Shown here: positions 21,345-57,504 of the stretch, one piece after another | Layout of the letters: each line of letters starts with the position of its first letter | Numbering within the stretch: the first letter of the stretch is position 1 | Origin: Marsupella aquatica | Lineage: Eukaryota > Plantae > Marchantiophyta | Assembly (NCBI GenBank): GCA_973895155.1 | Contig: OZ316896.1 | Span: 1,984,001-2,048,000, forward strand | Direction: 5' to 3' | Length of the DNA: 64,000 nt | Notes under the pieces: generated by a model | Told to the model about the DNA's origin: nothing | The model's database searches: none | What the model saw: the letters and a program-made list of their open reading frames with translations, nothing else | Program-made: the position numbers and the translations under genes

Positions 21345-21654
21345 GTGTGGATCTGCAGAATTACCTTCCATATTACAAAGGTGTACTTACGTAAGAGATT
21401 TGAGTGCAAATGAGGAGATGTCCTGCCCACCTCAGTCTCACGGAGTACAAGCAATGTCCAAAATAACTTGGCTCTGGTTTATGTGTGCTCTGCACAGACA
21501 GCAAAATGTTAAACGCAATCAGTCAAGCAGACTTGGATAAAGTGTTCAAAGTGAAAGAGAAGTTTATTCAAAAAGGCAAGACTGAGAATATTCAAAGTAG
21601 GCTGCAGTCTTATCTACTGCTCAAGACACAAAGGGTAGGTCTAATGCACGATGT

Positions 21655-21985: not shown

Positions 21986-22214
21986 ACACAGCTCAGTTAA
22001 TCAAACTAGCAGCTTGCTTGTACATTAGTTGCTCTACCCTAAACCCTAAAATGCTTCTCGTCCCTGCCAGTGTGGAGCGCAACACTACCTTAGTTGCAGC
22101 TTTGTCCTTCACTAAAGCTGAAATCCGGTTGATAGCTGACTGTGCAATCCGGTTGATAGCTGCTGCTGGTACTCGCCAGACAGACCCTTCACTGAAACTG
22201 AAAACAAAATTTGA

Positions 22215-32560: not shown

Positions 32561-32906
32561 GTATTCAATGATTTGGAGAAATTCAAATTTAAGTGATCAT
32601 GATAGATAAAACTTGATGTCAATCAAAAATCATACATTACAAAGCCATTCAATAGATTTGCTGAATGAAAACTTAAAGAAACATTCGATATATATCACAA
32701 ATCCAATTGATATTCATACAAGATACCTTCATAAGTCTCACGGTAAATATTGAACTCAATGCAAATTTATGAAACACAATTACATTGACATCAATAATAT
32801 TAGATTGTCAATTGTTACAACCTGACATACCAATCACTCTGCATGTTTATAGAAAAACAGAGTTGTCATTCTATCATGTCTATTGTTTCTTGATAGAGTG
32901 CTATTT

Positions 32907-35760
32907 CTATTGCTTCTTAAGCAATCTAGAGTTCCATAGGGCATTCATCCCTTTCACATCAGATAATTTAGACTGGTTCTCCCCTGAATTGGCAAATGGC
33001 AATGCCACATCTACAAACACTTCAATCACACGCACTCGCAAGAAAGGGCTTTCAAAATCTGCACAATGAAACTTATCTTCTCCTGGCAGCCCTGTCACCT
33101 CACCTTCTACCACTATCATGGAATTGTCCACAACGCTCTTCATCTTCACCAAATCTCCTCTTGCAAACTGCGAACAACACATTTTGTTAAAAATGCAATA
33201 AACAGAAATTGAAAGATAGAAGAACACTCAAATCAAACACACATTTACCTTTGCAACGGGGTTAGGAGACTGCATTGGTTTCTTCTGTGCAGGTGATGCA
33301 TTTGCTGAGGATCCTTTCTTCCTTTTCTTCTTTCCCTTTCTAGTTGATGGAGTGTCATCCTGCTCACTTGGAATGGGAGTTTCTTTTGGCAACTCAGATG
33401 ATTCTGGGGTTACATCTGGTGTCAACTGAGTCGACTTATCCTCTGGCAACTGAAAGGCATCTGAAATGGCTTCTTTGGGCAACTTAGATGGCAAAAGGTT
33501 CACTTCCAATTCAGTTTGCTTTAGAGTACTGTTAGCTATGTCAGTTGGTCTTCCCTGCAACACAGGAGGCTCCCCTAAAGATGCTGTCATAAAACACACA
33601 CAAAAGAAATGCATAAACAAACATGTATACACCAGCAACATATAATCACACTAAAAACATGCAAGAACATTATAAACATGCAATGACATATACACATCAC
33701 AATAATTACATTGAATGGACAGTGTATACATGATAGAGAATTTTACCTTCATTATCGCCTGAAAAAGTAAGAGATCGCTTTCTACTACCTTGTTTGGTAG
33801 TTGTAGTCAACTTACTGTGACTAGGCACAACTGTTGGAACTTGTGCATTACTGGGGTGATGTGCCATCCACGTAGTCATCATGTTTGTCAACTCCCTCAT
33901 AGTGCCTTTCAACTCAGCAATATCCAATTTCACAGCCCCAATGGCAGTTGATCTCTTCTTTTGAATGTGGGGTCTGTAAATGAACCACAAACCAACACAA
34001 CAGTCTCACTGTCAAACTTACAAATGACACAACACTAGCTCTGTCAAATGGAGAATGATGTACAAATCAAATTAATTGGTATGACAATACTCACAGCTGA
34101 TCCATGTCTGTTTCCTCGCCCCAGTAAGCTAGCACTTTTACCCTCCCCACTTGCCAATGATGGGCTCACCTTTGCTCCCACAAAACTACCAGTCTGACCT
34201 TCTGCACTTGCCAATGATGGGCTCATTGTCACCTTTGGCAATGAACCCTGACTACCATGGTTTTCTTTCAGGTCAGATATACCTGGGCTTGATCCTCTCT
34301 TCTGCTTCTGTTCAAACACACAATGAATGAGAAATCACAGAGTCTGTTTTCATCAAGATTCACAAACAAGACAAAATTGATAGTGAAAATGATAGACAAT
34401 TTACCATTCTCTTTGCTGCTGCAACATGCCCTCCCCTTCCAAAGTGAGAGGTATCTTGCACTCGTGCTCTTTTATCAGTCATCTGTTTACTCAAAGATAT
34501 CAATGTTGGACTGGTAAACTGAGATACCAAAGCTGCCCATTTCTTTGGATCAACACCAGATGGCCCAGGTTTGGTTGGATCCTCATTGCAAACTTTCTTC
34601 CAATAAACATGCATTTTATGGCGCTCTCTCTTCAATATGCCACGACAATGACTCTGGAATTTGGTGTTAATAAATTCCCCACCCACATACTCCCACTCAG
34701 CTGCCATGTTATTCCACACTGTGGTTGTATGAACTTGTGGATGATCAGTCCATTTTGGCTTTGATACATCAAAGACTCTGAGTACGTTGCCACGAAGTTC
34801 CTCCAGCCAGTATTGTTTGTTGCCATCAGAATCATCAATATCATTGTCATAAATCTGCATTTCACAGACAATGTCAGATCATAACTCTAGAATTTATGCA
34901 GAGTCCAGGTTTTATACACACAACAACAGAGAGGATCAGATTTGTCTAAATCTACATTCAAAACAAGTACAATACTCACTTTAATGTGTTTGGGCACCTC
35001 TCCGCAATCCCTTCATTGTTTGGCAGTATTATCAAACTGCTTCTTAGCATGCCTTCATTCCCTGCACATCTCAGAGGCCCCTCCTGCAATGCACACACAT
35101 GCATTCAATCAAAAAATATGTACATGATTGAAAATTTGAGCAAATGTACTTGCATATGCATGACGAGCAGATTGTGTATTACCTGAAGATCCTCTGGAAT
35201 GTAGTACATCAGATTGACCTGATCTGCCTTCAGATGCTGATGGAACCACTAAACAAACACACAACACCAAAGCACTTCAATTAATTTCATTTCCAAGTAG
35301 AATATCAACTTCCAAACACACCTGAAAAGTAGAACAGTACAATCCACTCACTTTCATATAAGAGTCCAGTGTCTGGGTCTTTCCAACATCTCACCAGCCC
35401 ACCTCCACCAGGCCCAGTCTTCTTAGGACCACGATTTTGTTTCTGTACCTACATCATGGACAACGTAAGCATATCAACATATAATTTGAAAAAGGGACAA
35501 GGATCCCTTCCTATTAGGATGATGAAGTTCAAGCATTACCTGTTGTGCACTCTCTGGTTCTGACCCTCCAATGTCAGAATCCTCAGTGTCATACTCAGAA
35601 GGAGAACCATAGCCATCATCACCAAACTCTGCCATGTTCACCTTGGTAACTTCTGATAGTCTAGAGCTCCTCCTCTTTGGCAATGTTTCAGTTGAAGTAC
35701 CTTTCACCAAAGCAGGCTTTCCTCTCTCTCGTTGTACATGTGTGGTTGGGCCTCTAAGGA
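32907..35760 (-). CDS. Multi-exon TnpA/Tnp1-like gene of B; exon limits approximate
   Basis: 34360-34860 encodes YWLEELRGNVLRVFD..KWAALVSQF..HFGRGG; 33706-33990 has SRKRSLTFSGD, shared with A; the last exon encodes FARGDLVKMKSVVD..GEVTGLPGEDKFHC..ALWN. Confidence 0.78.
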
Positions 35761-36186: not shown

Positions 36187-39100
36187 TCACTGCTTAGGCC
36201 TGCCCTTTCTTGCAGATCCCTCTGCATCTCTGCCTCGTTTGGGACCAGTACTTGGTCCTGGATTTGCTCTGGACCTACAGGCCTTAGCCAATTCGATGTG
36301 TAATTTGGCATTGTTTTCCATTGTAGCATGGAAATCAACGTCTGTGTAATCACCTAACACCCTTGTGGACCTGGATTCTTTGTGGAGGATTGTTCTCCAT
36401 GCTATCCCCTTCTCATTGGGGTGGAAGAAAACCTGCTCCACTTGCTTTGGGAAAACGTAATCCATTTTCTTGGACACACCCAGTTCTCTATGGAAATTTA
36501 CCTGCCAAAGACCAGACTTGGTATACCTCATACTGGCAGAGGATTTAGGAGTCCATGATGGATCTGCCCATTTCCCTTTGAAAAGAATCACCTCTTTCCT
36601 CAAGCTGCCATAATTCAGTACCAAGATATCTGTCAAGGCCCCTACATACTGTACAGATTCTTCTATGGTTGCACCAGGCCTGTCCACTCGCTTCTCAGTG
36701 AATGTAGAAGCCATCCCAGAATCAAAAGTGCTGAAAGCACCAGAATCACAATCACTCAAACACCCCAAGGATGGAATAGTCCTCCAATGGTGCCCATAGG
36801 CTCTACATGCCCTATACAGTCGTGCCTTCAAACTAGGTGGTGTGGAGTATGCAGATAGTAATGATCGCTCAGACTCTTTCTCAAAATTATGGGTATTGAC
36901 TAATGTTTGAAACCATTCCCTGAAAGGTGGCAATTCTTGGCAGTCAACGGGAAATTCCACTGGTTTTCTTCGATTGGTAGGCTTCCTCATCCACTCCTTC
37001 CGGAAATCCACTCTTCGTTTGGTAAAAGTCTCATTGGTAGCATCATATATCCTGCATGGCAACAACAACACTGAAGACATTAGTGCACGATCCACCATGA
37101 ATATACAAACACAATGGGGCAACATAATTATGATCCATATGCCTAAGGATAGGAGAGTTTCTAGGGTTTATGTACCTGTACCATGGAGCCACTGTCTCTT
37201 CATTCTCTAATATATAATGATGCATGGCCATCATTTCAGACCAATCCAAAGTTATCGCCTTTGCAGCCCCTTCCAAAACAATGCCTGCAACGCCAGCATC
37301 CTCCTCCAACTCCCAGGTTTGTTTTCCCTCTCCCTTTGCATCAATCATGTATTCAGAAAGAAATCCCAAAGACTCATCTAATACATAGCCTTCAGCCATA
37401 GAAGCCTCTGGACGTGCCTTGTTTCGTACATAACCCTTCAATACCTTCAGGTTCCTCTCTATTGGGTACATCCATCTGCCTGTAACTGGGCCACACAAGT
37501 CTAATTCCTCCACTAGGTGAATCATTAAATGGGTCATGACATCAAAGAAGCTTGGTGGAAAATGGATTTCCAAAATGCAGAGAGTGAATGCAACATCCAT
37601 CATCAAATTCTCATACATTGAAGGGTCCCACACCTTCGTACAGATCTGGCGATAGATATTGCTCACCCCAGCTATGGCCAAGCGAACCCCTTCATCAAGT
37701 AATCCCATTGTTGCCAGAGGGAGAATCTGTTGCATGAGTTGGTGGAAATCATGTGATTTCAACCTAGAGAGTTTCTTGGATTTTGTAACACACTTTGCCA
37801 AAGAACTTGAAAAACCAGTGGGCCCTTTCAAGGTCAATAAAACCTCCAAGAACCTTGTTCTTTCCTTCTTGCTCAGGCAATATGGGGCTGGGGGCATCAA
37901 CAATTTGTCATCCTTACGCTTGGGAGCTGGATTGGGTACAAGCCATAGGTGTTGGTGCACCTGTAAGAGCTTCATGTCTTCTCTCACAGAAGGAGTGTCC
38001 TTGGTCCCAATGATAGTGTGCACAATGTTGTGTGCAAGATTCTTCTCACAGTGCATGGGATCTAGACAATGGTTAATGAGTAGTTTCTGCAGTGGACACA
38101 CAATTCAGAAATTAGGGCATTGAATACAACTTTTGGCATCACTGGGCAGTAGTTTGTGCAGTGGACACAATTCAGAAATTAGTGCATTGAATACAACAAT
38201 TACAAAATCTGGGCTACAGGAAGTATATGAAGAGAATATATTTCAAAGTCATATGAAGAGATTGCAGAAATTCATTGTAGTAGTATGGAGTCTTACATTC
38301 CAATAGGGCAACTTGTACAGACCAGCAGCCCTCTTCACTCCATGCACCTTTATGGGGCATTTCTCATCCTCAACCTTGGTTCCTTCCTTCTTCAAATATT
38401 CTGTTGTCTCGTCTCCCCACTTCTTTCTATCAGAGCTTGTCATTCTACACGGTGCAGGTCGACTCTCAATTGCACCATCAAAGTATTGTGCACTATCTGG
38501 TCTACGAAAAAGATGCCTTGCTGCTAACCATCGACGGTGGCCACTGTACTCTAATTTCTGCAAGTGCTTAGAACCACGTGCCACACATTCTGGCCCACAG
38601 ATGACACATCCTTTGTATCCAGAGTGTTGTTGTCCAGATATTAAACCATATGCAGGGTAATCATTGATTGTCCACAATAGCACAGCCCTAAGGTTGAAGT
38701 GTTGAGACAATCCTGGGCGTGGCAATTTGTCAAAGCAGGGCACTCCTTTCTTCCACAACAGCTCCAGCTCCTCATAGAATGGGCCCAATATTATGTCTAG
38801 CTGTTCCTCTGTTACTGAATCAGGTCCTGGAATCAGCATAGCTAGCATGACAAAGAACTTCTTGGTGGTAAGCCAAGGAGGTAAATTGTAATTCAACAAC
38901 AGTATTGGCCAGGTAGACCAAGCTGTGGAATTATTCCCAAAGGGATTCACCCCATCAAGTGCCAACCCAAATTGCACATTCCTTGGTTCAGCTGCAAATT
39001 CCCGATCAATATTTGTATCCACATGCTTCCAAGCCTTTGAATCTACTGCGTGCCGAACCATGTTGTCTGTGATTCTATTCTCATGATGCCAAGTCATGAG

Positions 39101-40231
39101 TTTAGATGTACTAGCAGTGGCATACAATCTCTTCAACCTGGGAATTATAGGGAAATACCGCACTACCTTCCTTGCCTGTAATGAATTCCCCACTCTCTTC
39201 ATCTTGGGCTGCTGACACACTGAATAGTTTTCTAACTTGGCATTCTCACCCCTAAAGAGCATGCAACCTTTCTCACAGACAGGGATTCTCTCATAATCCA
39301 AGCCAAGCTTTCTCAATAGCTGCTTTGCAGCATATAAGTTCTTGGGCAGATTATGCTCTACAGGCATACCATGCTCCCCCATCAAAGACAACAATGCATT
39401 CACTCCTTTGTTTGAGAATCCATGGCCATGACAGATGTTTAGCAGAAGCAACATGAATGACACAACATCTATTTTGCTGCCTGGGAACAAAGGTTGCATT
39501 GCTGCATCTAAAGATAACTGTGCAGGATCAGTCTCCACAAGAGTTTCGGAGAATTCAAGAGGGTTTACAGGATGGGCACCTCCTTCACTCTCATCATCCC
39601 CAAGTACAAAATCCAAGTCAAAACGGTCCTGATCATCTAGTTCACGCTCAGGGGATTCTTTAGTGGTTCTCAGCAACGTTTCTTCCAGTAGAGCTCTGAT
39701 ATGTTCTTCAACATCTATAGTTGGATGTTCTTGAACATCCACAGTTGGATACTCTGGAACATCCACAGTTGGATACTCTGGAACATCTACAAATAAATGT
39801 TCTTCAACATCTACAGTTGGCTGTTGTGCACAGGTTCCCTGCTGAAGGTTTGCTACCCTCAATGCCTCAGGGCCATGTTGTGACATGTAGTCAGCACCCC
39901 ACTCTTCATCAAAAGAGTCCTGTCCCTCTCCCACCCACACTCGACATGCAGGGTACCGACCATGTTTAATAAGGTGCAGTCTAGCAGTATTCCGATTAGT
40001 CCTATAATTCCCTTTGCAGTTCACACAAGGGCAGTACATCTTATGGTCCCCACTCTTGTGGCAGGTCTTCTGTTCTCGAACCCACAAAGCATCATCACGA
40101 TGTTGTACTCTAGCTGGATGGAAGAGCGGCAACTTTGAAGTTCTACCCACACCTAACATATTCTGTGGCAATTGTGCCATGCTAGCTTGATTGAAACTAT
40201 GATTTTCAAACTGTATCAGTGTGACATGCAT
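36187..40231 (-). CDS. TnpD transposase of B; three coding exons (40231-38297, 38086-37176, 37051-36187), apparently open
   Basis: MYCPCVNCKG..HLIKHG; LALDGVNPF; WTINDYPA; DPMHCEKN; RWMYPIER; DUF4216-like last exon. GT-AG introns 38296-38087 (phase 0) and 37175-37052 (phase 2) keep the frame. Confidence 0.93.
39700..39820 (-). repeat. 24-bp coding tandem repeat (PTVDVPEY-like, x5) in the TnpD N-terminus
   Basis: PTVDVEEH/LFVDVPEY/PTVDVPEY/PTVDVQEH/PTIDVEEH. Confidence 0.85.
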
Positions 40232-41035
40232 ACAAAATTGGGCCTACCATCACAGTTGTACAACTGATGCCAACCACAGTCCAATTGCTCAAACCCATAG
40301 AGCCCAGTTTCTCAAATCCACTATAGTGGGGCACCTTCTCCTTCTTGCATACAAATAGAGCATCACATACAGTGTCATCAAAATGCTACTATGAACGTAA
40401 ATCTCTGTGCCTTCATCATTTCCAGTATTTGTTTGCCTATTAGGAATGTGAGCAGACAGGTCTGGAATAAGTAACGTTTGTGACACCAGTGACAAATTTA
40501 CAAGTGAAGTTTAGACATCAATATGGAGGAAAGTCACACTCAAAGCACATGCTTGAAAATCGGAATCCTACCCTGGAAAAGATAATAAAGTTGATTTCTC
40601 AAAATTAATTGCCTCAATCCGCAATGCACTGTTGTAGAGTGTGTATACATGAGGAGTTCATCAAACTGCATATAAATAGTCCACATGTTTTAGCACTCTG
40701 AAAATTGTTTAAGTCCACGTGAAACCATCACAAAGCTCTATCTCAAGTTTGTGTTCCATCCAACCTCAATCAAATCCAAGATATGTGGCTCCTAGCAGGA
40801 GTGCCTAGTGTAGGGTCAATGTCATGGTCAGGACAGTAAAACATCCCCTTCTTGGGCTGCCCATGCGCTGAGTGATCCCAAATTGTTCGATCATGGGCAA
40901 ATCCCCTATGCTGGACAAACAGCAGGCAGTCCTTGTGCCATGCCTTAGGACACCTCATGCACTGAACCAAAAAGCCATTAGCCCCATCATTGGGCCCCTG
41001 TCCACAAGTAAGACAAATATGGAGTCCACATGATG

Positions 41036-44000
41036 TGTGATGCCTAGACAGGAATCACTCGGCCAATTAAGTGGGTAAAGCAAGAAGGCACCCTAGGAAC
41101 ACCTTAGTATAGGGACAAAACAAGGAAAATATAAACCATTAGGGGCAACCATGGAACCCGGGCCGAGGCCGGAGGTAAGGACGCTGAGGGTGAAAACTCG
41201 ATTAGGGTTAGGGCGCGTTAAGCGTCGGCGGCTAGGAAGGATCAACGGGAAGAAGGACCGGCAGAGGAGAGGGGTAAGGAGCGCTTGCAGGAGATGGTGG
41301 CTCATTTGCAAGCACGAACTAGGCAGACGACTACGGGAAGCCAACTACTGTCAGCTGCTTAGGCAAGCACTCGGGGAGAGAGTAGATACCGACGATCGAC
41401 CTAAGGAGGGTATGAGCAACGTCAATCAAGCGGCACATTTCTGGGGATGCCTGTTCGAACGGGCAACTGAGTACATCAAGACTTACGAGGACGAGGAATC
41501 AGAAAGGGCAGCTCGAGAATGGCAGGAGCTTGCTTGATTGTGGGAGCTGTAGAAGACGGCTTTCTTAGGAGGCGAACTCATCAAGGACGAGTTCCTGTGG
41601 ACGCCTACCTCCAATCAACTCGACGATCTTCTGTTTTGCAAAGACAGCGTCGTCGGCATCCGAGAGGCCATCAAGAACTGCAACGACATACACTGGGAAT
41701 TAAAGGGTAGCACGGAAAGGTGGACCCAAGCAACGGTGCTAGGAGAAACCTCCACGGCAGCAGAGATGAAGAGGAAGGGAGCCGTCAACGATGAAGCCAC
41801 CCCGGCAAAAAGAACGAGGTCGGCGGCACCAAAGAAGCCAGCCAAGCAGCAGAGCAGGAGGCAGGGAGAAGCCGAAGAGGAGGAGGTCGATCCCATCAAG
41901 GCCATTCCAACCAAGGATGACACCTGGAAGGGCTGGGCGGCAACCCTACCGGTGGAAGTGCAACTACATTTTGCACGGGAGGAGGATGCATGCTTTACGG
42001 CAATGCAGACCAAGAAGTATCAAGGCTTCATGGCCAGATCCGGCTTAGAGGCCTTTGTAAGATTACCATGGCTGAAGCCGGAGGTACCGGAGTCAGACCT
42101 ATTAGAATTCGTGGGGTCATGGGAACCCGAGACCAATTGCACGAGGATATATGGGAAGGATTTCTATCTTACTCCCAAGGTAATTGCCGAAGTGTTTGGC
42201 TTGCCGATAGGCAATAAGACCAAATATGATACCAGGAAGACCTTGCCTGACAAGGAGTTCCGGTCGTTCCCCGGGCCATCAACGAAGAATGGCTTCTTCC
42301 GGAACACCTGCACCAACCCGCACATAGGAGAGATGATCGACTTCTTGCGGGTGACCATGCATTGTAACTTGCCGAGGGCAGAGATCGGCAAGGCACAGGT
42401 CTATTTGGCAGAAAGGCCAGACCCAAGCCGGGACTACAACGGGTACCTCCTCAACCAATTGAAGAAGATCTTAAAGGAGGAGTAGCAGGTAATCGGCATG
42501 GGGAGCGTGTCGCGGCTTGGCTATCACATGACGCTGTTGTGCCGGTATGCCAGAGGTCAGACTTTTGCCCCAGTACTTCCCCTACAGGTAAGGGCACCCG
42601 AGGAAGCTCCAACGCCAAGGCCGTTGGCTGAGAAGCCTCAACCACCTGTTAGCCCTACGATCGAGCAGGTGTTTAGGCCCAGGAAGGAGGACTTGCCGAT
42701 GCAGCAACCAGGCATGCAGAGTCTGCTGAAACTACTGGAGAAAGAAAAGAAATCGGCATCGGCAACAACAACGGCACCGGCAACAATGCAGGACACTACT
42801 ACAGAGGTAGGCCTACACCGGCTCACAAGAGAAAACCCCTTTGCTGGAGACAAGGAGAGAAGCAGGCCGGAATCCAAGCCAGGTGTTCGAATGTATGTGG
42901 GAATCTCAAGCTCCGAATCTGAGGCAGAATTGCCTGAAGCTTCTACCGACGAAGAGGAGAGGGAGAAGCCGGACGTCCAAGAAGTAGAGGAGGCAGTGGA
43001 GGACTGCAGCCATGATAATTCCGGCTATGGGTCGGACCATCACGTTCCAGGAGTAAGGACCTGTGGCCGGTTTGTCCCCACACTTCCAAGGGTAGTGCGA
43101 GGGGACCCCAACCAGCAGAGTAGCCCTGAGTCTCCCCCACCAGATGTTGCTCCCCCGAGCTTTGACGGCATAAAACAGACGGTGCAGGAATTTCAGGAGC
43201 GAATCAGGCAGGAAGAGGAGGCAGCCTTGGCTAGGGAAAAGGATTTACCAGGAGGAGATTGGCCGGAGGACATCAGGCGGCTAGCCAAAAAAGGAAGCAA
43301 ACCTCTAGCCATGATTGAAGAGATCCGCAAGACGGCTTGGGAGCAGAGGCCGCGATGGGCGATGCCGATCACTTCTACTTACTCCACCTACGCTAAGAAT
43401 AGAGCCATGGAGTATGGTGAGATGTGTGGGGAACTTGCGCTCGGCATCTTTGGAGAGGAGTTGGAGGTAGGACCCTTTTTCCATAGAGAGCAGTTGGAGA
43501 AGCACCAATTAGAAGAAGTGGTGGCTTTAGAGAGAAGCAAGAAGGACGAGGTCATTCGGCGGCTTAGGAGGATGGAAGCCGAGATTGAAGATCTAAGGGC
43601 GGCCAAGAAAGCCCAAGATGAACTGCGGATTAAACGGCATGAGCTGAACATCATGCAGGGGCAGTTGGACACCGCGCAGGCTGATAATCAGAATATCAAG
43701 GATAAACTGACTCAGACGCAGGGAGAGTTGGCTGACACGATCAAAGAGAGGGAGAAGTGGAAGCAAGAGCTGAAGAATACAGAGGAGGCCCACATAACAG
43801 CCAACAGCCGGGCCATGGCGGAGACCCAAAGAAAGGAATGGGCGTTGAAGGGGGAGCTCGAGAAAATCCGCGGAGCCCTTGAGCAGAAGGAGGCCGAGTT
43901 AGGGAAATCCTATCAAGGGATTATGGCGCTGCAGCAGGAGCTTGCGTCCCTGACGGCCAGCTTCAAGGCCGACCTAAGGGAGAAGGATGAGATGCTCGAT

Positions 44001-45697
44001 CAGACTTACGCCAAGATGAACCAGATGGAGTCTGTCATCATTGCAAAGCTCGACAAGGAGCTAAGAGCAACCCGGGAGGAGAGGACTACCTTGAAACAAG
44101 AACGGGAGGAAGCCCAGAAGGAACTAGAGGAGGCACGCAAGGACCTGGATGAGACCCAGGAGGAGTTGGAGGAAATCACGAGGAAGATGGAGAACCTCCA
44201 GCGGCGGGCCGACAACCAAACAGAGCGGCTGAAGAAACAAGCCGCAGTATTTAAGTGCTTGTCTTCATCAGGCCCAACTCCAATTGGGGCAACCAAGTTA
44301 CCAAGAGTGGTACTGGCCGAAGAAAAAGCCGCGCCACCTGCACCAGTGCCGGAAGTAAGTGGGAAGGGGAAGGGACCAGCTGCCGAACCAGAAAAGAAGA
44401 AAAAGCGGAAACCTTCAGGGTCAAGGAGTAATCCGACTCCACAAGCCGTGGTGACCAAGGAGGTAGACCAGCACCATCCTCTGGCATGAATACGGCAATA
44501 GATCCCGCTATCATCACAGGTGGGGGTGGTGCGGCCCAAGCCGAACTACTCAGTAATGAGGCCGGTATTCCAGATCCGCCTCTTGAGTAGGCCGGGGAGA
44601 CCGTAGCCGAGGCTGAGGCCGTAACCGATTCCCGAGCCGATGCCGACGCTGATGGTGGACCTAGTCAGGCCGATGGAGAGTTGACTCAGTCAAGGGCAGG
44701 TAATCTGTCAGAGAATGAACCTACGGCAGTGGCTGAGGAGGAAGCGTTGGGGGCGTCCATTAAGGATCCTCCACCGGTGTCGTGACGGTGCAAGGGCGCC
44801 GTTCCTTTTAGGGAGGGCGGACGTGGAGGGAGGAGGCGTGAGTGGGCAGGGCGGGCGCTGATCTCCAAGTTTAGGATTAGGATCAGGACCAGGAGCGGCC
44901 CTGACACTTAGCTTAGTGGGATTGCGATTCCACTGGTAGGAGCAACACTTGTGCTCCTACCTTGCTGTACATAGGTAGATTCGGGCAAGTAGATTACTGT
45001 TAGGTAGATTAGGCTTACGATGCAAAGAACGGCGGATCCACTACCAGGATAAGTACCTGGGCAGCGGGGAGCTCAGGGCCTCTTCTTTAGCAAGTTTTTA
45101 GTTTGCACCAGCCGGGCTGGGATCAAGTAGTACGAGAAGCTCTCGGTTAGTCATACAGTGACCCTTGTGTATATTCATGTTTCCTCATGCCTAAGAGCTG
45201 AATAGAGTTGGCCTCACGGCTTAGTTCGCAGAGCTTGTGTATGAGATGTACTGTTTGTATGGCAAGTGCATGGTATGACTCAGTCAGAATGAGTCATTTT
45301 GCTATTTGTGTGTCGCATTAACTTGTGTGAAGAGTGCCCACATCAACCAAAAGGAAGGAAAGTAAGCAGGGGAGTGAGAGTTGGATGTGTCGAGCTGAGA
45401 GAGGTCTTAGCGGCTTAACCAAGCCTATTGGGGATCATTCCAGCAGCGGAATCCAAACATACCTAACAAGACGGAGGGGAAGACAGGGGAAGGCCTAGAT
45501 TAGGCCGGCTACGTATCTCATGACCCGATGAAGGATCTGTCCAGTATATGTGTGTAAAATGTTAACAGTAGTAGTAGAAGGTTAGTAGCGTCCCATGCCG
45601 CTAAGCCGCGGAAACGGCCTCGCCAAGCGCGAAACCTGCGGGAATCGGCTTGAGCTGGGGGGTTTCTTGGGTTTAGGGAGCCATGGGACGCACCACA
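41036..45697 (+). mobile_element. 4.66-kb solo-LTR-like insertion carrying a long ORF
   Basis: Ends TGTGATGC...GCACCACA form a 7/8 inverted match; perfect TSD TGATG at 41031-41035 and 45698-45702. No gag/pol, no internal direct repeat. Confidence 0.88.
41151..44489 (+). pseudogene. ~1110-codon retrotransposon accessory-type ORF with a long coiled coil; three in-frame stops
   Basis: ORFs starting at 41151, 41736 and 42498 share one frame, broken only by TGA 41535, TAG 41550 and TAG 42483. Motifs GLEAFVRLPW..LLEFV..IAEVFGLP..KNGF..CTNP..IDFL. Confidence 0.78.
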
Positions 45698-46801
45698 TGA
45701 TGCTGTGCCAGGAACCAAACACTGCTGACAGTAAAACCGGGCATAGAGAGGGTCTGGACATTTTCTTACCTCTTCACCAATTTTTCCAGACACATGGCAC
45801 TTAAAGCAAGAATGTTCCTCATTCTTGCAATCAACACAAAGCCATTCTCCAACATGGCCATCAGCCAGGGATATAGTTGGGCATAGCCATTGCTGACCCA
45901 AAGGACAGGAAACATTCTTATGGAAATGTCGGTGGCAAGGCCCATCACAAACAATGAGATCCCCTCCCTCATCACAAATCGCACATACATGTGGACTATT
46001 CTGCTTAATCTCAATGTCTAAATATAAGGACAATTGAGGTGCTTGAGAGGATTCACCTCTGCAACGATTCATGGCCTTCTGCTTATTGCGAGCCATGGTC
46101 CTACACACTCAGACCCTACATCAGATTGTGAAACACGAAGGAATAACAGGGTGTAGCATGACACAAAAGAATGAGGGTGCAGCATAAAATATGACTGTAT
46201 GTAACCACAAGGGTGCAGCATAAACCAATGCTTTATGGATGGCAAAGCACTAGGATTGAGCAACGCAAATAACCTTGGCCTATGATTGGAAGCAATCACA
46301 AATATTGCAACCTGTATGCCTTCGCCTACTGTCCAGCAGTGCTCACTCACCCTGCCTTTTTAAAATCTGTAAGGGCAACACAGAACAAATAGCAATTGAG
46401 TTTCGACAAAGCATTGGTTCTCAAGTTTTAAAATGGACAGACTTGTTTCATTGCCTGCCTTGTGCGCAGCAGACTAAGACCGATCAGGGAAAATTTATAT
46501 ATTCAAGTAGTGAGAGCTACAAATTTAAATTTGCTGGGACAGTTTTCCAGTTCTGGATCTTGCTGTGCTTTATATACAGCAGCAACCTGAATTCGTTTTT
46601 TATAGACCAGCTTTTGACCACGGCTACAACTTCAAAACAATCACACAATCAAATCATGACAAATGATAAATGCAGCAACTAGCAAAGGAGAAAAATGCAG
46701 TGGCCCTGAAGTAAACCTGGGTCAAGGTTGTGAATAAAGTTCTCACCTTGTCCCTGCATAGCATCGGGAAATTCTACCCAGAGTCTAAAGCGGGAGATAA
46801 C

Positions 46802-47836
46802 CCCTGGGCCCTCACTCTTACTATATCAAGTGAACCCCTTGAGAACAGATACCCCCCGCGTACCCCTTCTTAATATTTTTGTTCACAAAAAAAATCCCTT
46901 GTTAATTTAAAAATATTAACTTTTCCTATTAAATTTTATCCTTTTGTAAATTATAATAGAGTTTTTCAAGGAATTGAAAACACCCTTGAATTTTTAGAAT
47001 TACAAATATCATACTGAAATAGTTAAAACTTTATCTTTTCATAGGGGACTTGTATGTTATGCTCGATGTTCAAGGTACATATTATATATAGATAAACAAA
47101 ATTAGGACGAGAGAAAATTATAGTTCTTCCTATAGTTTACACATAGACCTGCAATTTTGTCTTAGTGTTCGCAAAAGTGCCTCTGAACTTCTAGTTTCAT
47201 TAGTACTATATATATGTATAATCCAAGAATAATACTTCAAAGTCTGAACCAACTATAACAAACATTGTTTGAGCGCTCGAGACCCCTCCCTCAATACACA
47301 AACACATCTGGCCTCATACATGGCTGTTTGATTCAAGGGAATTCAAAAGTAATCTTGTCCATCCATGTGGGATTGATCCATGGATCCCCATCAATCCCAG
47401 TTTCCCAACCAAGTTGGATCCAAAGATCCTGGCCCAAAATTTACTCAACTCCCCACTTAACTTCTAAACGTGCGGGTAAACATGTCTACCTTAGTTAGCC
47501 CATTTGTTCCACTATAAGGGGACCAACGAAACCAAACCTGCCTTAAGACGATAATAATTAAATATATGATTTACTATATGGACACGTGTGCAAATGAAGT
47601 GATGACATGTGTGTCAACCATATAGTGACGCGTGTACTTGGCATTTTGGGTACCCTTGCATAAGATTTATGTGACATGTATTTGATTCTTGCCTTATTAC
47701 TAGTATTGTGGTGAATGTATATAGAGGGATGTTGCCTACTTTAAAAACTGTTATAAAAATTAGTTTGCATTACATTAAAAATACCCTTGCGTTGTTCGCA
47801 CGTCCTCCTTGTATTAGTAACACTAAGGGCCCAGGG
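46802..47836. mobile_element. Non-autonomous TIR DNA element (MITE-like, hAT- or Mutator-type), 1035 bp
   Basis: TIR CCCTGGGCCCTcactcttacta versus reverse complement CCCTGGGCCCTtagtgttacta. TSD GAGATAAC (46794-46801, 47837-47844), alternatively read as 10-bp GGAGATAACC. Confidence 0.85.
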
Positions 47837-50299
47837 GAGATAACCAGGCGATGATCCATCCCAAGTTGCGTCAGGTCTAGGAAGATTAGTACTCTCCTAA
47901 CGTGACAAGACTTCTTCTGGATCATTCTCTGTAACAAAATTTATTCATTTCAAGTAAAAGACTGAAATCATTTGATGGCAAACCATCAAGCTGACTTTCA
48001 TGGTTAGACACTGCCAATAAAGTTTTCAACACAACAAACAGAGCAAACATTGCCAAAAGAATTTTTGGGTACAAGGGTGCTGCATCCTGATTTGCCTAAA
48101 CTCCATGAACTTACTAGCAGATTCTTATGTTCAATTAGGTAGCATTAAATAGACCAGCCTTCCACTCAGGCAGAAACAATCCTGGCCCACTCAGGCATTA
48201 AACAAGGTCGAGCCGAAAACTTTTGGCATCAGCCGCATAAACACCAAATGTTGCCAATGCTAACACAATGAAATACTGGAAGAGATAGAAAAAGATACAG
48301 CAGCATTTGAGGCAATAATTGCCAAACAACAAAAAGACAACACAATAACTTATCAAAACTGAACACAGCAGACACAAAAAATTGATGCTAAGGAGGAACT
48401 ACAGGAGACATACACAAAGTGGGCGCAGTTACATCCGTAGGATGGCATTCACCATGGGTTGGTTGGCTACATTTAATCACGAGCACATTTTACCAGACAG
48501 AGGCCCAGGTCCTTGTTTACTCTTCTAGTACGATGGCATTATGTTCCACAGGTCCCTGAAGTGCTCATTAGCGATCTATGAGGTATAATCATCTCTCTTG
48601 CTTGGACTGTAGGCAATATATTGATCGGAATGATGACATGGTTGCTAAGGAAGGGAGATCCTCAAACCACAACAAAAGTTTAATGTTCCACTATAACAAA
48701 ATCAGAAATCAGAAATCAGCAAATCAGCAAATCAATAGCAGACAGAAAGGAACACTGTTATTTGAAGACAATAAGCTTTATTTTGTTTTTGCAATTATAA
48801 GCTTGAGGTGTATGGTGTTCAATTGTTCTGCAGAGCGGTCCTCGCACGAATAGTTTTTAAGACTGATTACATTCAATCTGTCTGGATCCTTTAAGACAAC
48901 ACATATATTGCAGGCACATGTAAAGCTCCATGAACATTGAGACAAGGTCGGAAAGAGGGTCCAGGTTGTGATTAAGACAAAAAATAGAGAGAAACCCCAA
49001 CTCCAACCATCGCATGATCACACAATCATGCGCTTACCCTTAAAGCCCAAACTTGCTCCCACAAATGGAAGTCCTTAGTTCCTCCCACCACCGTCCGACA
49101 ATGGCTGTTGCACTGCAAAGACAGTCTGTGCAATGAAGCTCCCACTTCCAACAATGGACAGCTACCGCAGCTCCTCAGCTCCCATAGCTCCTCAACTCCC
49201 GTAACTCCTCCACTCTGGAACCTCCTATACTTGATTGCCGATTGCAGCTCGTCCTCACCCGCTCCTCACCACTCCTCCCACTCCTCAATCACCAATAGCT
49301 TATTGCCGATTGCAGGTTGTCACGGATTGCCTTGAGCCCTTGAACTCCCGTAGCTCCTTCCGTGACTGCAACTCAGTGATAATCTTAGCTGCGCAACCCA
49401 AGCCTTGAGCATGCCTCATACCTCATCTGACCAAGCTACCAAGGCACAATGCAGCCAGGAGCGATGGCCATGTAATCCGCGTGAGGGGGCCGTCGACGCT
49501 GCGCGACCCTCACCAATGCCAAGCACCCTAAAGCAACGAGCGCTCAGTAACGTGGTGTGCCAAGAAAGCCAAACATTGAACGTCAAGTTTGACAGAAGCA
49601 CAGAGGGGAGGGAGCAGGCGCATGCACAAGTAAAAGGAACAAACGGATGTGCTTATGATGATAACCTAGGCACTCGGGACCGCGCGCATAGCTCCCCTAC
49701 ATTGAACTCCCCACCTCCTAGCAACGAGACCTCACCTCTGCTCAGCTCACCTTTGGGAAAAAATCGAGCTACAACCGGAAATGTAGCAGCAAATGCGGAG
49801 CAGACAAACGACATAGCACAAAATGTGGCAAGCAAAGGATCACAGTAGCGTATTGGAGCATTACCAGCGACCTCCACCTTGAACTTGCAAGCAGCAGCTT
49901 GCGCTCTATTGCCCCCCACACACTGAAAAAAGCACACTGGAAAAAGCGCAGGCTCTCGGGGCAGGCTCACAGTGAAAAGAGTCGCAAACCCAATCAAAGC
50001 TCCTCCCCAACAAGTCTTCTTTGACCGCGCAGCACACTTCTCCGCCAACTCGCAGCACAATGAACAGAAATGGCAACTACAAAACCCTTGCAGCCCGAAT
50101 GGGTCGGAGCTCCATGGAGGCTTGTAATGTGCACACAAAGGCGCTCCAAGAAATGAGCACATTCAACAAAAGACTCAATGTTTTTTCAGGAAAGAGGGCT
50201 CCCGCGACTCGATGTTTTTTAGGGAAAGAGGGCTCCCGCAAATACGGGAGAACACCTATGTGAGAGAAAGCATACCGTTGGATTGGCCTCGTCCGCTTC

Positions 50300-53200
50300 G
50301 TTCAAATGACGCAAAACGTCCGTTCAAATGACCCAAAACGTACACCCTTCTTAACCCTAAAATCCTTACTTCACACAAGAAGTGAAGTCCCCCCCCCCCC
50401 CTAAGGCCCTAGGGAAGGCTTGGTTAAATTTAAATTCAAGCTCCCCCAAAAGGCACTTTCCTTGAAAACAAAACGGTTAAGAATGTTAAGGACCAATGTT
50501 ATATATAAAAAAGGACGCCCATGATATAAAAGGTCCATTTGGACCAAGGGGAAACCTATTTGGACCCTAAACCCATAACCCACCCCTCATTTAAACAAAT
50601 TAATCCTTCATGGGAGGTGAGGATGTTGTGCATTACACTAGTGTAATTAACTATGCAATGGCCATGTGTTTTGGGTGATAGGTTATGTCCGCAGTCATAT
50701 ATGCATGCATCAATGACCTCCAATATGACAAGATTAATGGCTTCCAATATGACCGCATGAATGACCCTAAACTTTTAGACTCAATGAGCTCCCTTGTAAC
50801 TCCAAAGAGAACCCCCCCAATATGCTTTGAAATGACCACATTTCCTGTCATTTGGTACTTTTGACCTCTAGTATGACAGCCAAGATGACCCTAATTTGAG
50901 GTGTTTGAATTAATGACACACCATTGTTCCAAAATGACCCAATGAAGATTACACTACCTCTAGGAGTGCCCCTTTACAATTCCTTTGCAATTTAATAGAA
51001 AATACCCTAACTCCAAATATTGGCAAAAACATGACATACATATATAGAAGGAAGATAGCCTTCCACTAGTATTGCACTATATACCTCTTGGAGAGACAAA
51101 AACAATATTTCTTTGCCTTTGGATGTGATGGTATACACCCATGGTTGCACTTTTGGCAAATCATTCCAAAGTCGTACGACTTGGGAGTGATTTCCCCAAA
51201 GATGCATCATGCCTCAAGTAAACGCAAAAACATATGTCCAAAGTGTTTATGTCGCAACTAGTGGTTGGACAATGATGAGTATAGTGTCCCGCACCCAGTG
51301 GAGAGGTTCTCACCTCTATGTGGGGCCCCATGGCACTCTAGGGCCCACCACCAGCCCCTAGCCCCAAACTAGTCATTTGTGCCTTTCCTTAATGACTGCA
51401 TGAGGGACCCCTCAAATGACCACAAATCCAGTCATTAGACTGATATGACTGCCCATATGACAGTTTTAATGACCCTACTTTTAGTCATTGGCATTTATGA
51501 CGGGCCATTGCTCACATATGACCCAATAAAGGCCCTAGTACCTCTAACTAGAGCCAACTTTAGATCCTTTGCAAGATTGGAATATTCCTCTTCCCTAATC
51601 CCGCACCCACACCATACTGAGAAGCACAACTCCCCTGCCCATTCCATTGGTGCAGCACTACCTCTTGGGGAACCAAAAAATAGGTTTTATTTGCCTTTGG
51701 ATGTGATGGTATACATCCATGGGAGTGATTTCCCCAAAGGTGCATCATGCCTCAAGTAAACGCAAAAACATGTGTCCAAAGTGTTTATGTTGCAACTAGT
51801 GGTTGGACAATGATGAGTATAGTGTCCCGCACCTAGTTGAGGGGTTCTCACCTCTATGTGGGGCCCCATGGCACTCTAGGGCCCACATCCAGCCCCTAGC
51901 CCCAAACTGTCATTTGTGCTTGTGTTTAATGACTGCATGAGGGATCACACAAATGACCACAAAGCCAGTCATTAGACTGATATGACTCTCTATATGACAG
52001 TTTTAATGACCCTACTTGTAGTCATTGGTATTTGTGATGCAAATGTTTTTAGAAATGACCCAATAAAGATTACACTAGCTCCTTGAATGCCCCATCACTC
52101 TTTATTTGCAAATTAAATTATCCCCCATCCAAACACTTGCAGCAACATGACACAATTACAACAAAGGATGACAACCTTCCATTGGTATTGCCCTACTTCT
52201 TCGAGAGACAGAAAGATTTCATTTGCCTTTGGATACGATAGTATGCGCTCATCTATATATGGTGACACTTCTAGAAAATCACTCCAAAGGTGTATGACTT
52301 GGGAGTGATTTCCCCAAAGCTAGGTGCATCATGTTTAAAGTAAATGCAAGACATGTGATCAAATTGCTAATGCTGCAACAAGTGGGAGGACAATGATGAG
52401 TATTGTGTCCCGCACTTAGTGGAAGGGTTATCAACTATATCAATGACTCTACAATTATGACCGGTGTCTAGAATGACTATTGAGTATTTTAATCTTCATA
52501 TATCTTGGGTTCTTTAATGACTCTATAAGTAGTCATTTATGCAATAAGTCCATAATGACTGTATGTTATTGTAAACATTGATATATCATGATTTTTAGAT
52601 TGACCCTATATTTAGTCATTTATGCGACAAGTCCATAATGACAGTATGTTGTTGTAAACATCGATATATCCTAATTTCAAGATTGACTCTGGAGTTAGTC
52701 ATTTATGAGAGAAGTCCATAATGACGGAATGTTCTTGTAAACACTGATATGTCATTATTTCAAGATTGACCCTAGAGTTAGTCATTTATGAGAGAACTCC
52801 ATAATGACGGTATGTTCTTGTAAACATTGATATGTCCTAATTTCAAGATTGACCCTAGAGTTAGTCATTTATGAGAGAACTCCATAATGACGGTATGTTC
52901 TTGTAAACATTGATATGTCCTAATTTCAAGATTGACCCTAGAGTTAGTCATTTATGGCAGAAGTCCATAATGACAATATGTTGTTGTAAACACTGATATA
53001 TTCTCATTTTCAGATTGACCCTAAATTTTGTCATTTAACACCGTTGGTTAAAATGACGATAATACATTTTTTGTCATTTATCACCGTTGTCCAAAATGAT
53101 CCAAATAGATTTTTGGTCATTTCAGTCATTGTCCAGAGTGACTATAATGTTGCTAAACACTGATTAATCATTGTTGTTATTAATTGTGTCATTTAAGACA

Positions 53201-53614: not shown

Positions 53615-53975
53615 ATTGCCTTGACATCTTTGTCTCTCCTTAGTTGAAATTTTTTCCTCGCCTTGATATCTTTTCTCATCTCAAAATCGTTTCCTCCCTC
53701 AACATGATTTCCTCACCTTGACTTTGCCTTCACATCTTTTCCTTGCCTTGAAATCTTTTGTGCAATGCTCGCCTACATTGCTTTGTACATATCACCTCGA
53801 CATTGTTTTCTCCCTTCAACATTTTGTCCTCACCTTGACATCTTTTTCTCACATCAACATCGTTTTATCACCTTGACATCTTTGTATCACCTTGACATCT
53901 TTGTATCACCTCGACATCTTATTATCACCTCGACATCTTTGTATCACTCGACATCTTTCTATCATTGACATCTTT
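53615..53975. repeat. Degenerate ~19-21-bp tandem repeat outside B
   Basis: Recurring cacct(t/c)gacatcttt units. Confidence 0.75.
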
Positions 53976-56634
53976 CGTGCAATGCACTGGTATTGGGCTA
54001 GTGTAAACATAAATCATGACAAATGGCATACATGCTTATTATTTGACATATATCATGGTCATGAATTTTCCATCTAGAGGTTTCACTCTAGTAACCTAGG
54101 CCCCAAATCTAGCTTGTAGTTCATATTTTATAAATAAGATTCAATGCAAGAATTTAAATAAATGTGGGCCTAATATACAATACAATTCCTGTAAGTTTTT
54201 ATTGCTCAAATGGTACTATTTGTAATAGCCACATAAAATGATCTCAATCATGCAATATACTAGTTTATACAATGACTAGCCCCACACTCATGCATTGCAC
54301 ATACCATGTCATGTTGTCATTATAGCTACACCCTTCTAACACTCTGCTATTTTAACTTATTGAAAATGATGTAAACATGATCTTATTATCATATCTTATT
54401 TTGAGTTTATTAAAGTAATCATTTGAATTAAAGTACAGAACGAGCAGTCACACCCTTTCAGCTCGATCTAAATAGATCATTCAATGTTAATATTAACTAA
54501 ATCATAGCTATAGTGTGCGAATAAGTGCATTGTGGCAGCGAATTAATCTGATACAGATCAACTGGAGCTTGGCATCCATGAAACATCTCAATCAAATAGG
54601 ATATATTAAATATGACTGACTCAGATACTTAGCATGTACACTGACTCCATGATTGCCTGTTTGTTCACTAGCTAGACCAAAATTAAATAATCTTACTAGG
54701 AAATAATTTGATCATTCAGTGTCCCCCGCTCTCATTTTCGTATCAATGATACGAAAATCTTACACATCTTAGGATTCTAGGAATCTTTAGATAAGTAATC
54801 TATAAATTATCACGAGATGCAATTAGCCCACAATTTCTCTTCCATCAATCCCTAGCCTGCAGGTGAAGTGATCGATGCCAACTAGATCACAGTTTCGTTG
54901 TTCTTTTGCTAAGTGTTTACTACGATTGGATGCATGTCCCCGTGCAGGTCCAGAGTATTAATTGAAACCTAAGATACTAACAACTCGCAACGACTGGTCT
55001 TCCAATATCTCATCATCTAGATGATATCTCCCATATGGTTGGATTGAAGAAACAAATGAATGCATGAAAAGATGCTCATGTGACCCATGCAACTACCTAG
55101 GGGCAAATTAAAAGACTACTAGCTATAAGTACTAGTGTTTACTACAATACCTGAAAACAAGAATAAAGGCAGACCAGGACCCACGTCAACTAGAACATTG
55201 CATGACATGATCGATTGTCCATGAAAGTCAGTCAGAGGTATCTAATGAAGCTACCATAATAATAACAATTTATTCTCATGAGCCAGCAGTAAGATCATAT
55301 ATAGTCCATGTGACTTAGACAAACATGGCTCCAGGCAGGTATTAGCAATGTAATATAGAATTTCACATAGTTATCATGATATGAAATTTAAAAGTGCCCT
55401 AACCTGTTTCACCCGATAATTTTCTGAATCAAGTTGAATTTACTATTGCCTTTAGATGGCTCAAGTATTGTAAGGAGACCCAGTGCAGGAGACATCAGGC
55501 AAAAAATGCAGATGACTTAAGGCAGGAGATAGGGGCGTGAACAGCGCGGCTTATAAGTTTTCATCCCGTTATACTTAAGAGGTCGTTTGTCAATCCTATT
55601 ACCTCTGGGCTCTTGCTTTCTGGGTGCTGAGTGCAAATTAAATGAGGTAGACCTGAAACATAATTACTACACGGGAACCATGCGATGACCATATATCCTT
55701 TTACAGGATGCAGTAGCATTTGTCTTCAGCCCACGGCAACCATTAATTGGGACTACTCATACCAGGAAAGTATTGTCTATCATCTGGAAATTAAGGTACG
55801 TATGATCTTATGGCCCTCAATCTTTACAGGTGGTATCGCCGGATCGACTTCACATACACCACAGGCTCGATCATTCCGTCCGGCTTTTGAAATGCCAATT
55901 TCATTTATGAATTTTCTAGCAAAGCTACCTTTTGTACATATATGTCGAGTCAGTTCTAACTCTGGAAAATTGAAAGTGAACCGTACGTTGCTAATCTTGT
56001 GTTGTACATTGTGATTCTAACATTTGTGTTACTTATCTAACCCTTATTTGAAGCACATGTGCCTGAACAGCTTCCTTTCCATGTCAAATATTGTACAGTC
56101 CAGAAAGATACTGTAAGTACCCAATTAATCATGCATTTACCCAAATATGTTAAACTGAAACAAAACCAGATTGATCACTTACAAAAATTATCGTGATATC
56201 TTGAGCATCAACCAAAATATGTGATGGATATTTAATACAACTGGCTTTGTAAGTCAGAGAGTTCCAGCTTGAGAATGAAAGTTATTTACTCGAGTAAGAA
56301 CGTACTCTCTTCACAGGCGGACGGTGGAAAATAGTTGGCAATGATAAAGAAGAAACCCACTACGCATAAGGCCAACTATCGATTCTGGTAATCTGCATAC
56401 GTATCTACTGTACATACATTGCCCATTTGGTTGAAGTGATCGATGTATACATACTATTTAGGTCAATAATAACCCACATGAGTATTATCCATATGATCCT
56501 TAAGTCCACTTTGCAAACTGGCCTTGCAAAAATACTTTTAGTCTTGTATCCGGCCGGCTTCTATACATCTTTGTTGTATATGTGCAAAAGGCGTGTACGT
56601 TTCCAATGATTTGGCCTTTTGCTAACTCATTTTT

Positions 56635-57504
56635 TTGACTCATCACGGTATAATTTATAGTGGAGCAGACAACGATTCAGTAGAAATCCCTCGTGCCAGA
56701 AGAAAAGAAGACCCTCGTCAACCACCAGATGACCACATACCTACAAACTATCTGGTTACCCGCGAAGATATATCTACACGACCAATTAATTCTGGACGAG
56801 AATCACCGTCTATCCCCAAGATTACAGCTAGTGAGGCTCATGCTTCTGAATGGGACATTGATTTGGACAAACCAACACATAATGAGTCTGAAACCGGTCA
56901 AGACATCTTTAACTATACTTTTTATGAAGGAGATTACGTATGTTTAACCCTCAAGGAGCTTGAGGTTGCAAGGGGAACAGTGTACTGTGTCCAACCTGAC
57001 AAAGCAATTAACCCAGGTGAACATTTGGGAAATAATCGCATTGCTGTGAAGCTTACAAAGGTTTTCGAGAAGACAATAAAGCTCCCATATCCTGCCCCTA
57101 GTGCTCGTACTGTTGAAGAGGCTTTTATAAATTCTCAGCCTATCATGTGGGACAATTTCCGCGTCTTCCATGCTTATCATAACAGCCCTCTTGGTCAAGA
57201 CGTGTCGCTTGGGGATGGTGTGGGTACAAGTTCTGGTCATCCCGTCACTAGCACGTTGGGACCAAGTGCTCGCACTTCAGGTGGAACCAACACTAAAGCT
57301 GGTTCTAAAGAGGAAAATTATGACGTTGAGGAAAATGTGTCTAAAGCGGGGTCTGAAGAGAGAGAGGGTGATCTTGAAGAAGAATCTGACTATGAGCTGT
57401 TTGAAGAAACTGAATGTACCGATGATGACGACGAGGATAACCAAGAAGACATTGAAGACGAAGCTGGTCCGTTACACACACTCCAACCCAATACCATGAA
57501 TTAA
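56635..57504 (+). CDS. Exon with a Tnp1/En/Spm-like domain and acidic tail; part of a degraded multi-exon, probably TE, gene (~55200-59560)
   Basis: FYEGDYVCL..EVARGTV..HLGNNRIAVKLTKVF..LPYP..TVEEA..IMWD resembles the TnpA C-terminal domains of A and B; flanking pieces contain stops. Confidence 0.55.
   Translation: MTHHGIIYSGADNDSVEIPRARRKEDPRQPPDDHIPTNYLVTREDISTRPINSGRESPSIPKITASEAHASEWDIDLDKPTHNESETGQDIFNYTFYEGDYVCLTLKELEVARGTVYCVQPDKAINPGEHLGNNRIAVKLTKVFEKTIKLPYPAPSARTVEEAFINSQPIMWDNFRVFHAYHNSPLGQDVSLGDGVGTSSGHPVTSTLGPSARTSGGTNTKAGSKEENYDVEENVSKAGSEEREGDLEEESDYELFEETECTDDDDEDNQEDIEDEAGPLHTLQPNTMN

Follow-up and report, generated by a model that had tools for sequence, protein, structure and literature searches.

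The plant protein EDM2 contains a DNMT1-RFD domain, an acidic region, PHD fingers, an ELP domain as well as a tail rich in proline (PMC7529245), and its PHD module is reported to bind histone H3 dimethylated at lysine 9 (H3K9me2) as well as other marks (PMC7472560, PMC7529245, PMC3632883, PMC9910501). Large DNA transposons can carry separate accessory genes, and for PAG1-3 of the Plavaka elements of red algae (SET/methylase, 2OG oxygenase), for TnpA of Spm and for VANC of VANDAL a role in chromatin or silencing was proposed or shown (10.1101/2025.02.11.637652, 10.64898/2026.08.24.746577). Moreover, the recruitment of reader domains by transposable elements (TEs) is widespread, with 823 candidate fusions listed in one survey (10.1101/2021.11.30.470311). 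Here we report on a stretch of 64,000 nt from the liverwort Marsupella aquatica (contig OZ316896.1, positions 1,984,001 to 2,048,000; assembly GCA_973895155.1), called the window in the following, to which all positions refer. It contains a CACTA element, element B, which carries ahead of its transposase gene a composite PHD gene of EDM2 type that is split by a nested insertion. Like the accessory genes mentioned, this is a separate gene of a large DNA transposon; while those encode enzymes or sequence-specific DNA binders, its product is a reader only, predicted to be of the histone-binding type. It shares with the PHD and chromodomain fusions the uptake of a reader domain by a TE, but the published survey covers fusions, and a standalone open reading frame (ORF) would go uncounted in it.

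An Interrupted Composite PHD Gene

On the minus strand of element B, a reading frame from an ATG at 46096 to a stop codon at 40770 encodes 219 aa without an internal stop once 41036-45702 is excised, i.e., 4667 nt made up of the nested insertion (41036-45697) and one copy of the target duplication TGATG. The 5' half (45703-46096, minus strand) encodes aa 1-131 with a basic N-terminal tail, PHD1 and most of PHD2, and the 3' half (40770-41035, minus strand, including the stop codon) encodes aa 132-219 with a half-PHD and the EDM2-type C-terminal motif YC..H.I...TP.R.H. The protein has 37 aa ahead of PHD1 and ends where the cassette ends. The open frame as such is weak evidence for the breakpoints, as 15 lengths were tried (4660-4674) and all five that keep the frame are open. 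The excision length is fixed at 4667 nt because a 10-nt direct repeat, CCACATGATG, lies at both junctions (41026-41035 and 45693-45702) and because contigs join 41025 to 45693. Contigs of four public sequencing runs were compared with positions 38000-48500, and such joints without the 4667 nt are present in three of them (X1, X2 and X4; not X5); the X1 junction contig of 1204 nt, spanning 40329-41025 and 45693-46195, differs from the window by 17 substitutions and is free of gaps. In addition, a profile of 14 homologues, from which the window sequence was excluded, matches both halves over their whole length (profile positions 1-143 at 46096-45692, E 4e-45; 135-225 at 41051-40773, E 3e-34). 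The uninterrupted form of the gene is thus confirmed, and with it the core of the original prediction, made from the letters of the window, that removal of 41036-45697 and one duplication copy leaves a stop-free ORF of 219 aa. Its wording "perfectly restorable" was overstated. Residue 118, a zinc-ligand position, is Tyr (TAT) in the window and Cys in all 11 full-length database homologues, so that excision would not restore a perfect protein.

The PHD junction contig has a depth of 701 in X1, compared with 771-858 for the transposase contigs of element B and with 10.7 and 11.7 for two unique contigs showing no difference from the window; this corresponds to about 60 times single copy for the uninterrupted PHD gene and about 74 times for the transposase contigs, ratios that are rough since contig depth is not copy number.

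The nested insertion itself (41036-45697, 4662 nt, unstranded) begins with TGTG and ends with CACA, lacks a long internal repeat pair and contains on the plus strand one degenerate, coiled-coil-rich frame of approximately 1100 codons. It is flanked on the plus strand by the 5-bp duplication TGATG (first copy 41031-41035, second copy 45698-45702). The target-site duplication proposed originally stands in this 5-bp form, although the direct repeat at the junction actually extends to 10 nt. The 5-bp parse is preferred over a 10-bp one because the insert then has TGTG...CACA ends and because three listed joints of X2 exit the insertion at 45697; a duplication of 5 bp next to 5 nt of microhomology was considered more likely than a 10-bp duplication of the type made by Mutator-like elements. 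With TG...CA ends and a 5-bp duplication, traits of a solo long terminal repeat (LTR), the insertion resembles a large solo LTR of Ty3/gypsy type, and a search of Atlas protein clusters gave as a lead only ATHILA ORF1/Transposase_32 clusters at 0.88. A full retroelement was ruled out, as an internal LTR pair is absent and Pfam gave no match to gag, reverse transcriptase or integrase. The insertion is among the most abundant repeats of the runs examined, with an X1 depth roughly 1800-7600 times that of unique contigs.

A Family of Standalone PHD Proteins

Uninterrupted copies, for which the original prediction had proposed a search, were found not only as junction contigs but also as database proteins. 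Searching with the 5' half returned two candidates, both uninterrupted (P0001, 225 aa, 77% identity; P0002, 216 aa, 66%), and the 3' half is 86% identical to residues 138-225 of P0001. With a four-sequence profile, 14 of 403 candidates were kept. Of these, 11 are full-length; they measure 213-247 aa, have a start and a stop of their own and are 29-83% identical to the window protein. Two types can be told apart, type B, in which most members end HISW[IL], and type A. The Cys/His pattern is retained, with 16 columns holding C or H in every one of the 13 aligned rows. In Pfam, PHD-1st_NSD matches all 14 members (in the case shown, without reaching the curated cut-off), PHD_NSD 11 and PHDvar_NSD nine, and neither a SET nor a PWWP domain was found in the PHD ORF or its homologues. 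The predicted model of the intact P0001 has a mean pLDDT of 79.7 and a pTM of 0.75, with low confidence for the first 28 aa. Fold searches with this model retrieved only PHD cassettes, all weakly: the best Foldseek TM-score on the query was 0.30, and the best structural match was the PHDvC5HCH tandem of NSD2 (Z 5.3, root-mean-square deviation 2.6 over 75 residues). PDB sequence searches revealed no solved plant relative of the EDM2 cassette. Scanning metagenomes with the four-sequence alignment produced 220 matches to the pattern, none of which was confirmed as a locus. Of 65 candidates in a word-seeded search for longer P0001 relatives none scored, while a later HMMER search did recover such relatives.

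Relation to EDM2, NSD and Short Liverwort Proteins

The 14-sequence profile retrieved 1292 proteins at E <= 0.001 and 124 at 1e-30. Among the 145 new proteins listed, 71 have at least 900 aa, and in 51 of these the cassette starts at residue 170-300. Ten were looked up, of which three belong to clusters named EDM2 or EDM2-like (one containing EDM2_ARATH), five are from liverworts, one is from Closterium and one has no name. The original prediction of an EDM2-type composite PHD protein holds: positions 37-224 of the family profile match the EDM2_ARATH cluster with E 3e-40, while the match to NSD2/NSD3 reaches only position 174 of 225, short of the C-terminal motif. The window protein aligns with residues 224-432 of EDM2_ARATH (P0170) at 30% identity over 215 columns (E 2e-23; its two halves alone E 2e-10 and 3e-13). 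Two and a half atypical PHD fingers follow each other collinearly with EDM2_ARATH, with one ligand being Tyr in the window copy, and the C-terminal YC..H.I...TP.R.H motif is present and aligned; the EDM2 motifs which the prediction had cited, this one included, agree with the EDM2_ARATH sequence. The PHD1-3 cassette is shared with NSD2/NSD3 as well, which are the best PDB sequence matches (E 2e-15), but the TE ORF has neither their SET nor their PWWP domain.

From EDM2 the TE protein differs in several respects. It is encoded by a multi-copy transposon and has 219 aa compared with 1297, and it lacks the DNMT1-RFD domain, located at 19-136 in EDM2, and the methyltransferase-like ELP domain and proline-rich tail that come after the EDM2 cassette. 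The acidic run is lost too, as the 15 residues before PHD1 contain two acidic residues in the window protein and 0-3 in 15 B-type proteins, compared with 6-10 in seven EDM2-like proteins. Furthermore, the B-type proteins are without a segment of roughly 20 aa of PHD2. The TE protein would resemble EDM2 in its working, but it is not an EDM2 protein.

The closest long matches of both window ORFs are liverwort proteins of 692-768 aa which end soon after the cassette (35% identity over 213 columns for the ORF of element B). These short EDM2-like proteins, i.e., MPTK1_1g03210 of Marchantia (P0032), KAL3685775.1 of Riccia (P0031) and CAM6087769.1 of Calypogeia (P0029), likewise carry a C-terminal cassette, and their (D/E)DPP.C entry into PHD1 recalls the A-type copies; they differ in being of host type and in having a long N-terminal region, which in P0032 contains a weak DNMT1-RFD match (E 0.09). 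Liverworts carry such a short protein beside a long EDM2-type protein (P0037, P0038). Our literature search found no paper on the short protein or its function. In a tree, the standalone proteins group with the short liverwort EDM2-like proteins (support 99/96), a tree of 38 of 191 sequences chosen by hand, with long branches and with P0033 and P0036 assigned to the short liverwort proteins from their architecture alone. Constraining the tree to unite EDM2 proper with 16 standalone proteins was rejected in the approximately unbiased (AU) test (p 0.019), and forcing the B type alone together with angiosperm-type EDM2 was not rejected (p 0.21), both groups being named after inspection of the tree. 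The homology of the cassette supports the earlier reading of the gene as EDM2-like, while the tree grouping and the lost acidic run speak against the simple view of an EDM2 without its tails. A short EDM2-like gene such as liverworts have is the likely source from which the TE gene was captured. The named homologues, for their part, suggest a liverwort or another bryophyte as host.

The CACTA Elements of the Window

Element B (31844-53425, minus strand; 21.6 kb) has 14-nt terminal inverted repeats starting CACTA, with one mismatch, and subterminal repeats near both ends. Its Tnp2 transposase (36187-40180, minus strand) is present as three reading segments with the domains Transpos_assoc, Transposase_21, DUF4218 and DUF4216; Pfam matches are strong for Transposase_21 (E 2e-65) and DUF4218 (E 8e-36) and weaker for the other two. 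The likely Tnp2 start at 40180 lies about 590 nt past the PHD stop, and a splice-acceptor-like sequence is found ahead of each start codon, that of the PHD ORF and that of Tnp2. A fusion exon of PHD and transposase was judged unlikely given the conserved stop of the PHD ORF. Further downstream, a multi-exon gene common to elements A and B (32900-35670, minus strand) was delimited by tblastx blocks, with 51% identity in one exon; it is TnpA-like by position only, and a Pfam search of it gave no match. Upstream of the PHD ORF follow an unstranded insertion of about 1.04 kb with an inverted repeat (46792-47834), at which contigs of X1 and X2 join 46791 to 47835, and a GC-rich block at 49000-50500.

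Element A (10714-31142, minus strand), which like B looks complete, also has 14-nt CACTA termini, with a depth step at about 10738 at its left end, and it has the gene order of element B, namely GC-rich block, PHD ORF, Tnp2 and multi-exon gene. No matching 3-bp target-site duplication flanks either element (TGT/ATA for B, AAA/ATT for A), which for such old, nested copies speaks neither for nor against a CACTA element, the limits of B being set by its terminal repeats. The paralogous composite-PHD ORF of element A (20634-21332, minus strand; 232 aa) contains two in-frame TGA stops and is 66% identical to the intact P0006, which has Lys and Arg at the columns of these stops. It has Tyr at the same ligand column as the copy in B, and its C-terminal YC..H.I...TP.R.H motif is degenerate. 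While the transposase domains of A and B are 67-78% identical, the PHD proteins share 30% identity, with a similarity of E 4e-12, yet no blastn match remains in the region. PHD and transposase DNA are equally CpG-depleted (observed/expected 0.12-0.25). In X1 the PHD region of element A has a depth of 344-710, compared with 322-789 over the remainder of the element, one repeat-rich bin excluded. A third, partial CACTA element, element C, lies at the left edge of the window with transposase pieces at 1-1628 and a SET-domain ORF at 1804-2619 (minus strand; Pfam SET E 6e-6, above the cut-off). This ORF occupies the slot upstream of the transposase which the PHD ORF occupies in A and B, and its contig depth in X1 is about 50 times that of unique contigs.

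Several further features were seen. Between the PHD ORF and the transposase of element A lies a second small Cys/His-rich ORF (19774-20217, minus strand; about 148 aa) without a Pfam match, and a 1-nt deletion at 20262 in three of the four runs suggests a frameshift nearby. Element A also contains an insertion-like block at 21643-26427, bounded by 107-nt direct repeats (82%) and with minus-strand ORFs at 23199-24341 and 24499-25089, and a small nested insert at 13760-14083 comparable to that at 46792-47834 in B; contigs of other runs skip both of these inserts. Tandem or dispersed subterminal repeat arrays are located at 11021-11344, 28050-30300, 52415-53078 and 53792-53943, with units of 12, about 400, 83 and 19 nt, respectively. 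A 256-nt direct repeat (95%) at 8125-8379 and 9652-9907 lies over bins of very high depth, with a skip of 2705 nt (6532 to 9238) in three runs, and outside element B an ORF on the plus strand at 56626-57504 (292 aa) gave no Pfam match.

Possible Roles of the PHD Gene

As a feature, a predicted chromatin-acting accessory gene of an EnSpm element is well supported. It is highly probable that the PHD ORF is a real, selected TE accessory gene, and we infer that its product serves the element because a neutral fragment would not retain frame and zinc ligands over such a distance. In the explanation that we favour, the ORF would be an accessory gene that a multi-copy CACTA family carries as a standing component and that encodes a zinc-finger cassette related to the EDM2 family but stripped of all other domains. 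The protein would probably bind chromatin, because the EDM2 module binds H3K9me2 and other marks, and by homology the target would be a histone tail. It may then aid transcription of its own element in silenced regions, a putative anti-silencing effect exerted by competing with, or substituting for, the host EDM2-family reader on the silenced chromatin of the element. For chromatin-acting accessory genes in EnSpm elements there is precedent (10.1101/2025.02.11.637652). A helper that faces the host is favoured because divergence is far faster in the PHD ORFs than in the transposase, as expected for a host-facing protein, and because their slot is in common with that of the SET writer of element C. 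We assign to the whole mechanism, i.e., a captured reader-only helper acting on silenced chromatin, a probability of roughly 0.42.

A number of points weigh against this explanation. Expression of the ORF is presumed, and histone-tail binding is predicted from homology. The fast divergence would equally fit relaxed selection or two separate captures, as the grouping of A and B has a support of only 92/65. Both window copies are damaged, that of B by the insertion and the Cys-to-Tyr exchange, that of A by two stops and, at the same column, likewise Tyr. With the acidic run gone and about 20 aa of PHD2 missing in the B type, binding may now proceed in another mode. Linkage to the transposase is seen in this window and, in the runs, only through depth and one contig. 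Finally, a reader without a DNA-binding domain has no evident way of targeting its own element unless partnered with the TnpA-like protein. A more elaborate version, which we consider doubtful, would have an exchangeable chromatin slot ahead of the bryophyte CACTA transposase, holding a SET writer in one lineage and an EDM2-family reader in another, with the PHD protein imitating or opposing the EDM2 pathway of the host and shifting the element's transcript from a short product, PHD only, to the full one with the transposase or back, and with an H3-tail mimic as bait in some subfamilies.

Alternatively, the PHD protein could bind Tnp2 and read a histone mark, thereby steering or activating integration, much as the PHD finger of RAG2 serves RAG1 and chromodomains serve chromoviruses. 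NSD-type cassettes also bind non-histone partners, and the PHD ORF adjoins the transposase on the same strand and at similar depth. PHD and chromo readers in TEs have been linked to targeting (10.1101/2021.11.30.470311, 10.1101/2022.06.16.496473), but those published cases are fusions, whereas the PHD ORF ends at a conserved stop. The PHD protein moreover diverges much faster than the transposase that it would bind, and the SET writer in the same slot of element C suits chromatin modification better than targeting, so that such a tether appears unlikely.

The original prediction had proposed that the protein could recruit or titrate the ASI1-AIPP1-EDM2 (AAE) machinery to allow processing of a long, intron-rich TE transcript. 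In such a model the spliced transcript would be read to a distal poly(A) site, with the PHD protein as the proximal and the transposase as the distal product. The AAE complex is reported to favour distal polyadenylation across intronic heterochromatin (PMC7472560), and the cassette truly belongs to the EDM2 family. As a splice-acceptor-like sequence stands before each of the two starts, a single transcript may yield PHD protein and transposase alternatively, and together with the GC-rich block at 49000-50500 this is compatible with one alternatively processed unit. However, every part of EDM2 other than the PHD cassette is missing, the host proteins most closely related lie outside EDM2 proper by the tree and by the AU test on all standalone proteins (though not by that on the B type), and pure titration would be expected to lower read-through rather than to raise it. 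We regard this model as improbable.

A further idea is that the disordered N-terminus imitates the H3 tail and thereby absorbs silencing writers or readers, or fills the PHD pocket of the protein itself. Met-Ala-Arg-x-Lys occurs at the first or an early Met in six of 15 B-type proteins compared with three of 128 long hits; the first nine residues match the H3 N-terminus at seven positions in P0001 and at five in the window copy; and residues 1-28 are those of low confidence in the P0001 model. The pattern was spotted post hoc in rows that form one clade and are non-independent, and it is missing from the A-type proteins and from nine of the 15 B-type proteins. A basic nuclear-localisation signal would explain the tail equally well, and three short liverwort host proteins likewise start Met-Ala-Arg, which leaves a histone decoy very unlikely. 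Least probable of all is a functionless, Pack-CACTA-type fragment amplified with the element, since, although CACTA elements commonly capture gene pieces, both window copies are broken and PHD and transposase DNA are depleted in CpG to the same degree, the gene has clean domain boundaries with its own start and stop, keeps open frames and zinc ligands across 29-83% identity, and retains protein similarity between A and B where no blastn match is left.

Perspective

In a comparison of 962 Spm proteins (10.64898/2026.08.24.746577) the term PHD is absent from the main text, whose supplements, like Table 6 of a chromatin-evolution preprint, could list such proteins. No description of a TE-borne EDM2-type PHD gene was found in the full-text literature, with subscription journals, Repbase and Dfam lying outside this search. 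To our knowledge, the only plant transposon anti-silencing proteins shown to work are DNA binders (VANC, TnpA). If the explanation favoured here is true, the CACTA family would follow a different strategy that acts at the level of histones and RNA processing, through a reader from the family of the very host factor that governs transcripts across TE heterochromatin. An intact TE copy would offer a natural construct of the EDM2 cassette of about 220 aa, and the finding draws attention to the short, as yet unstudied EDM2-like gene of Marchantia, where genetics would allow direct tests of the idea.

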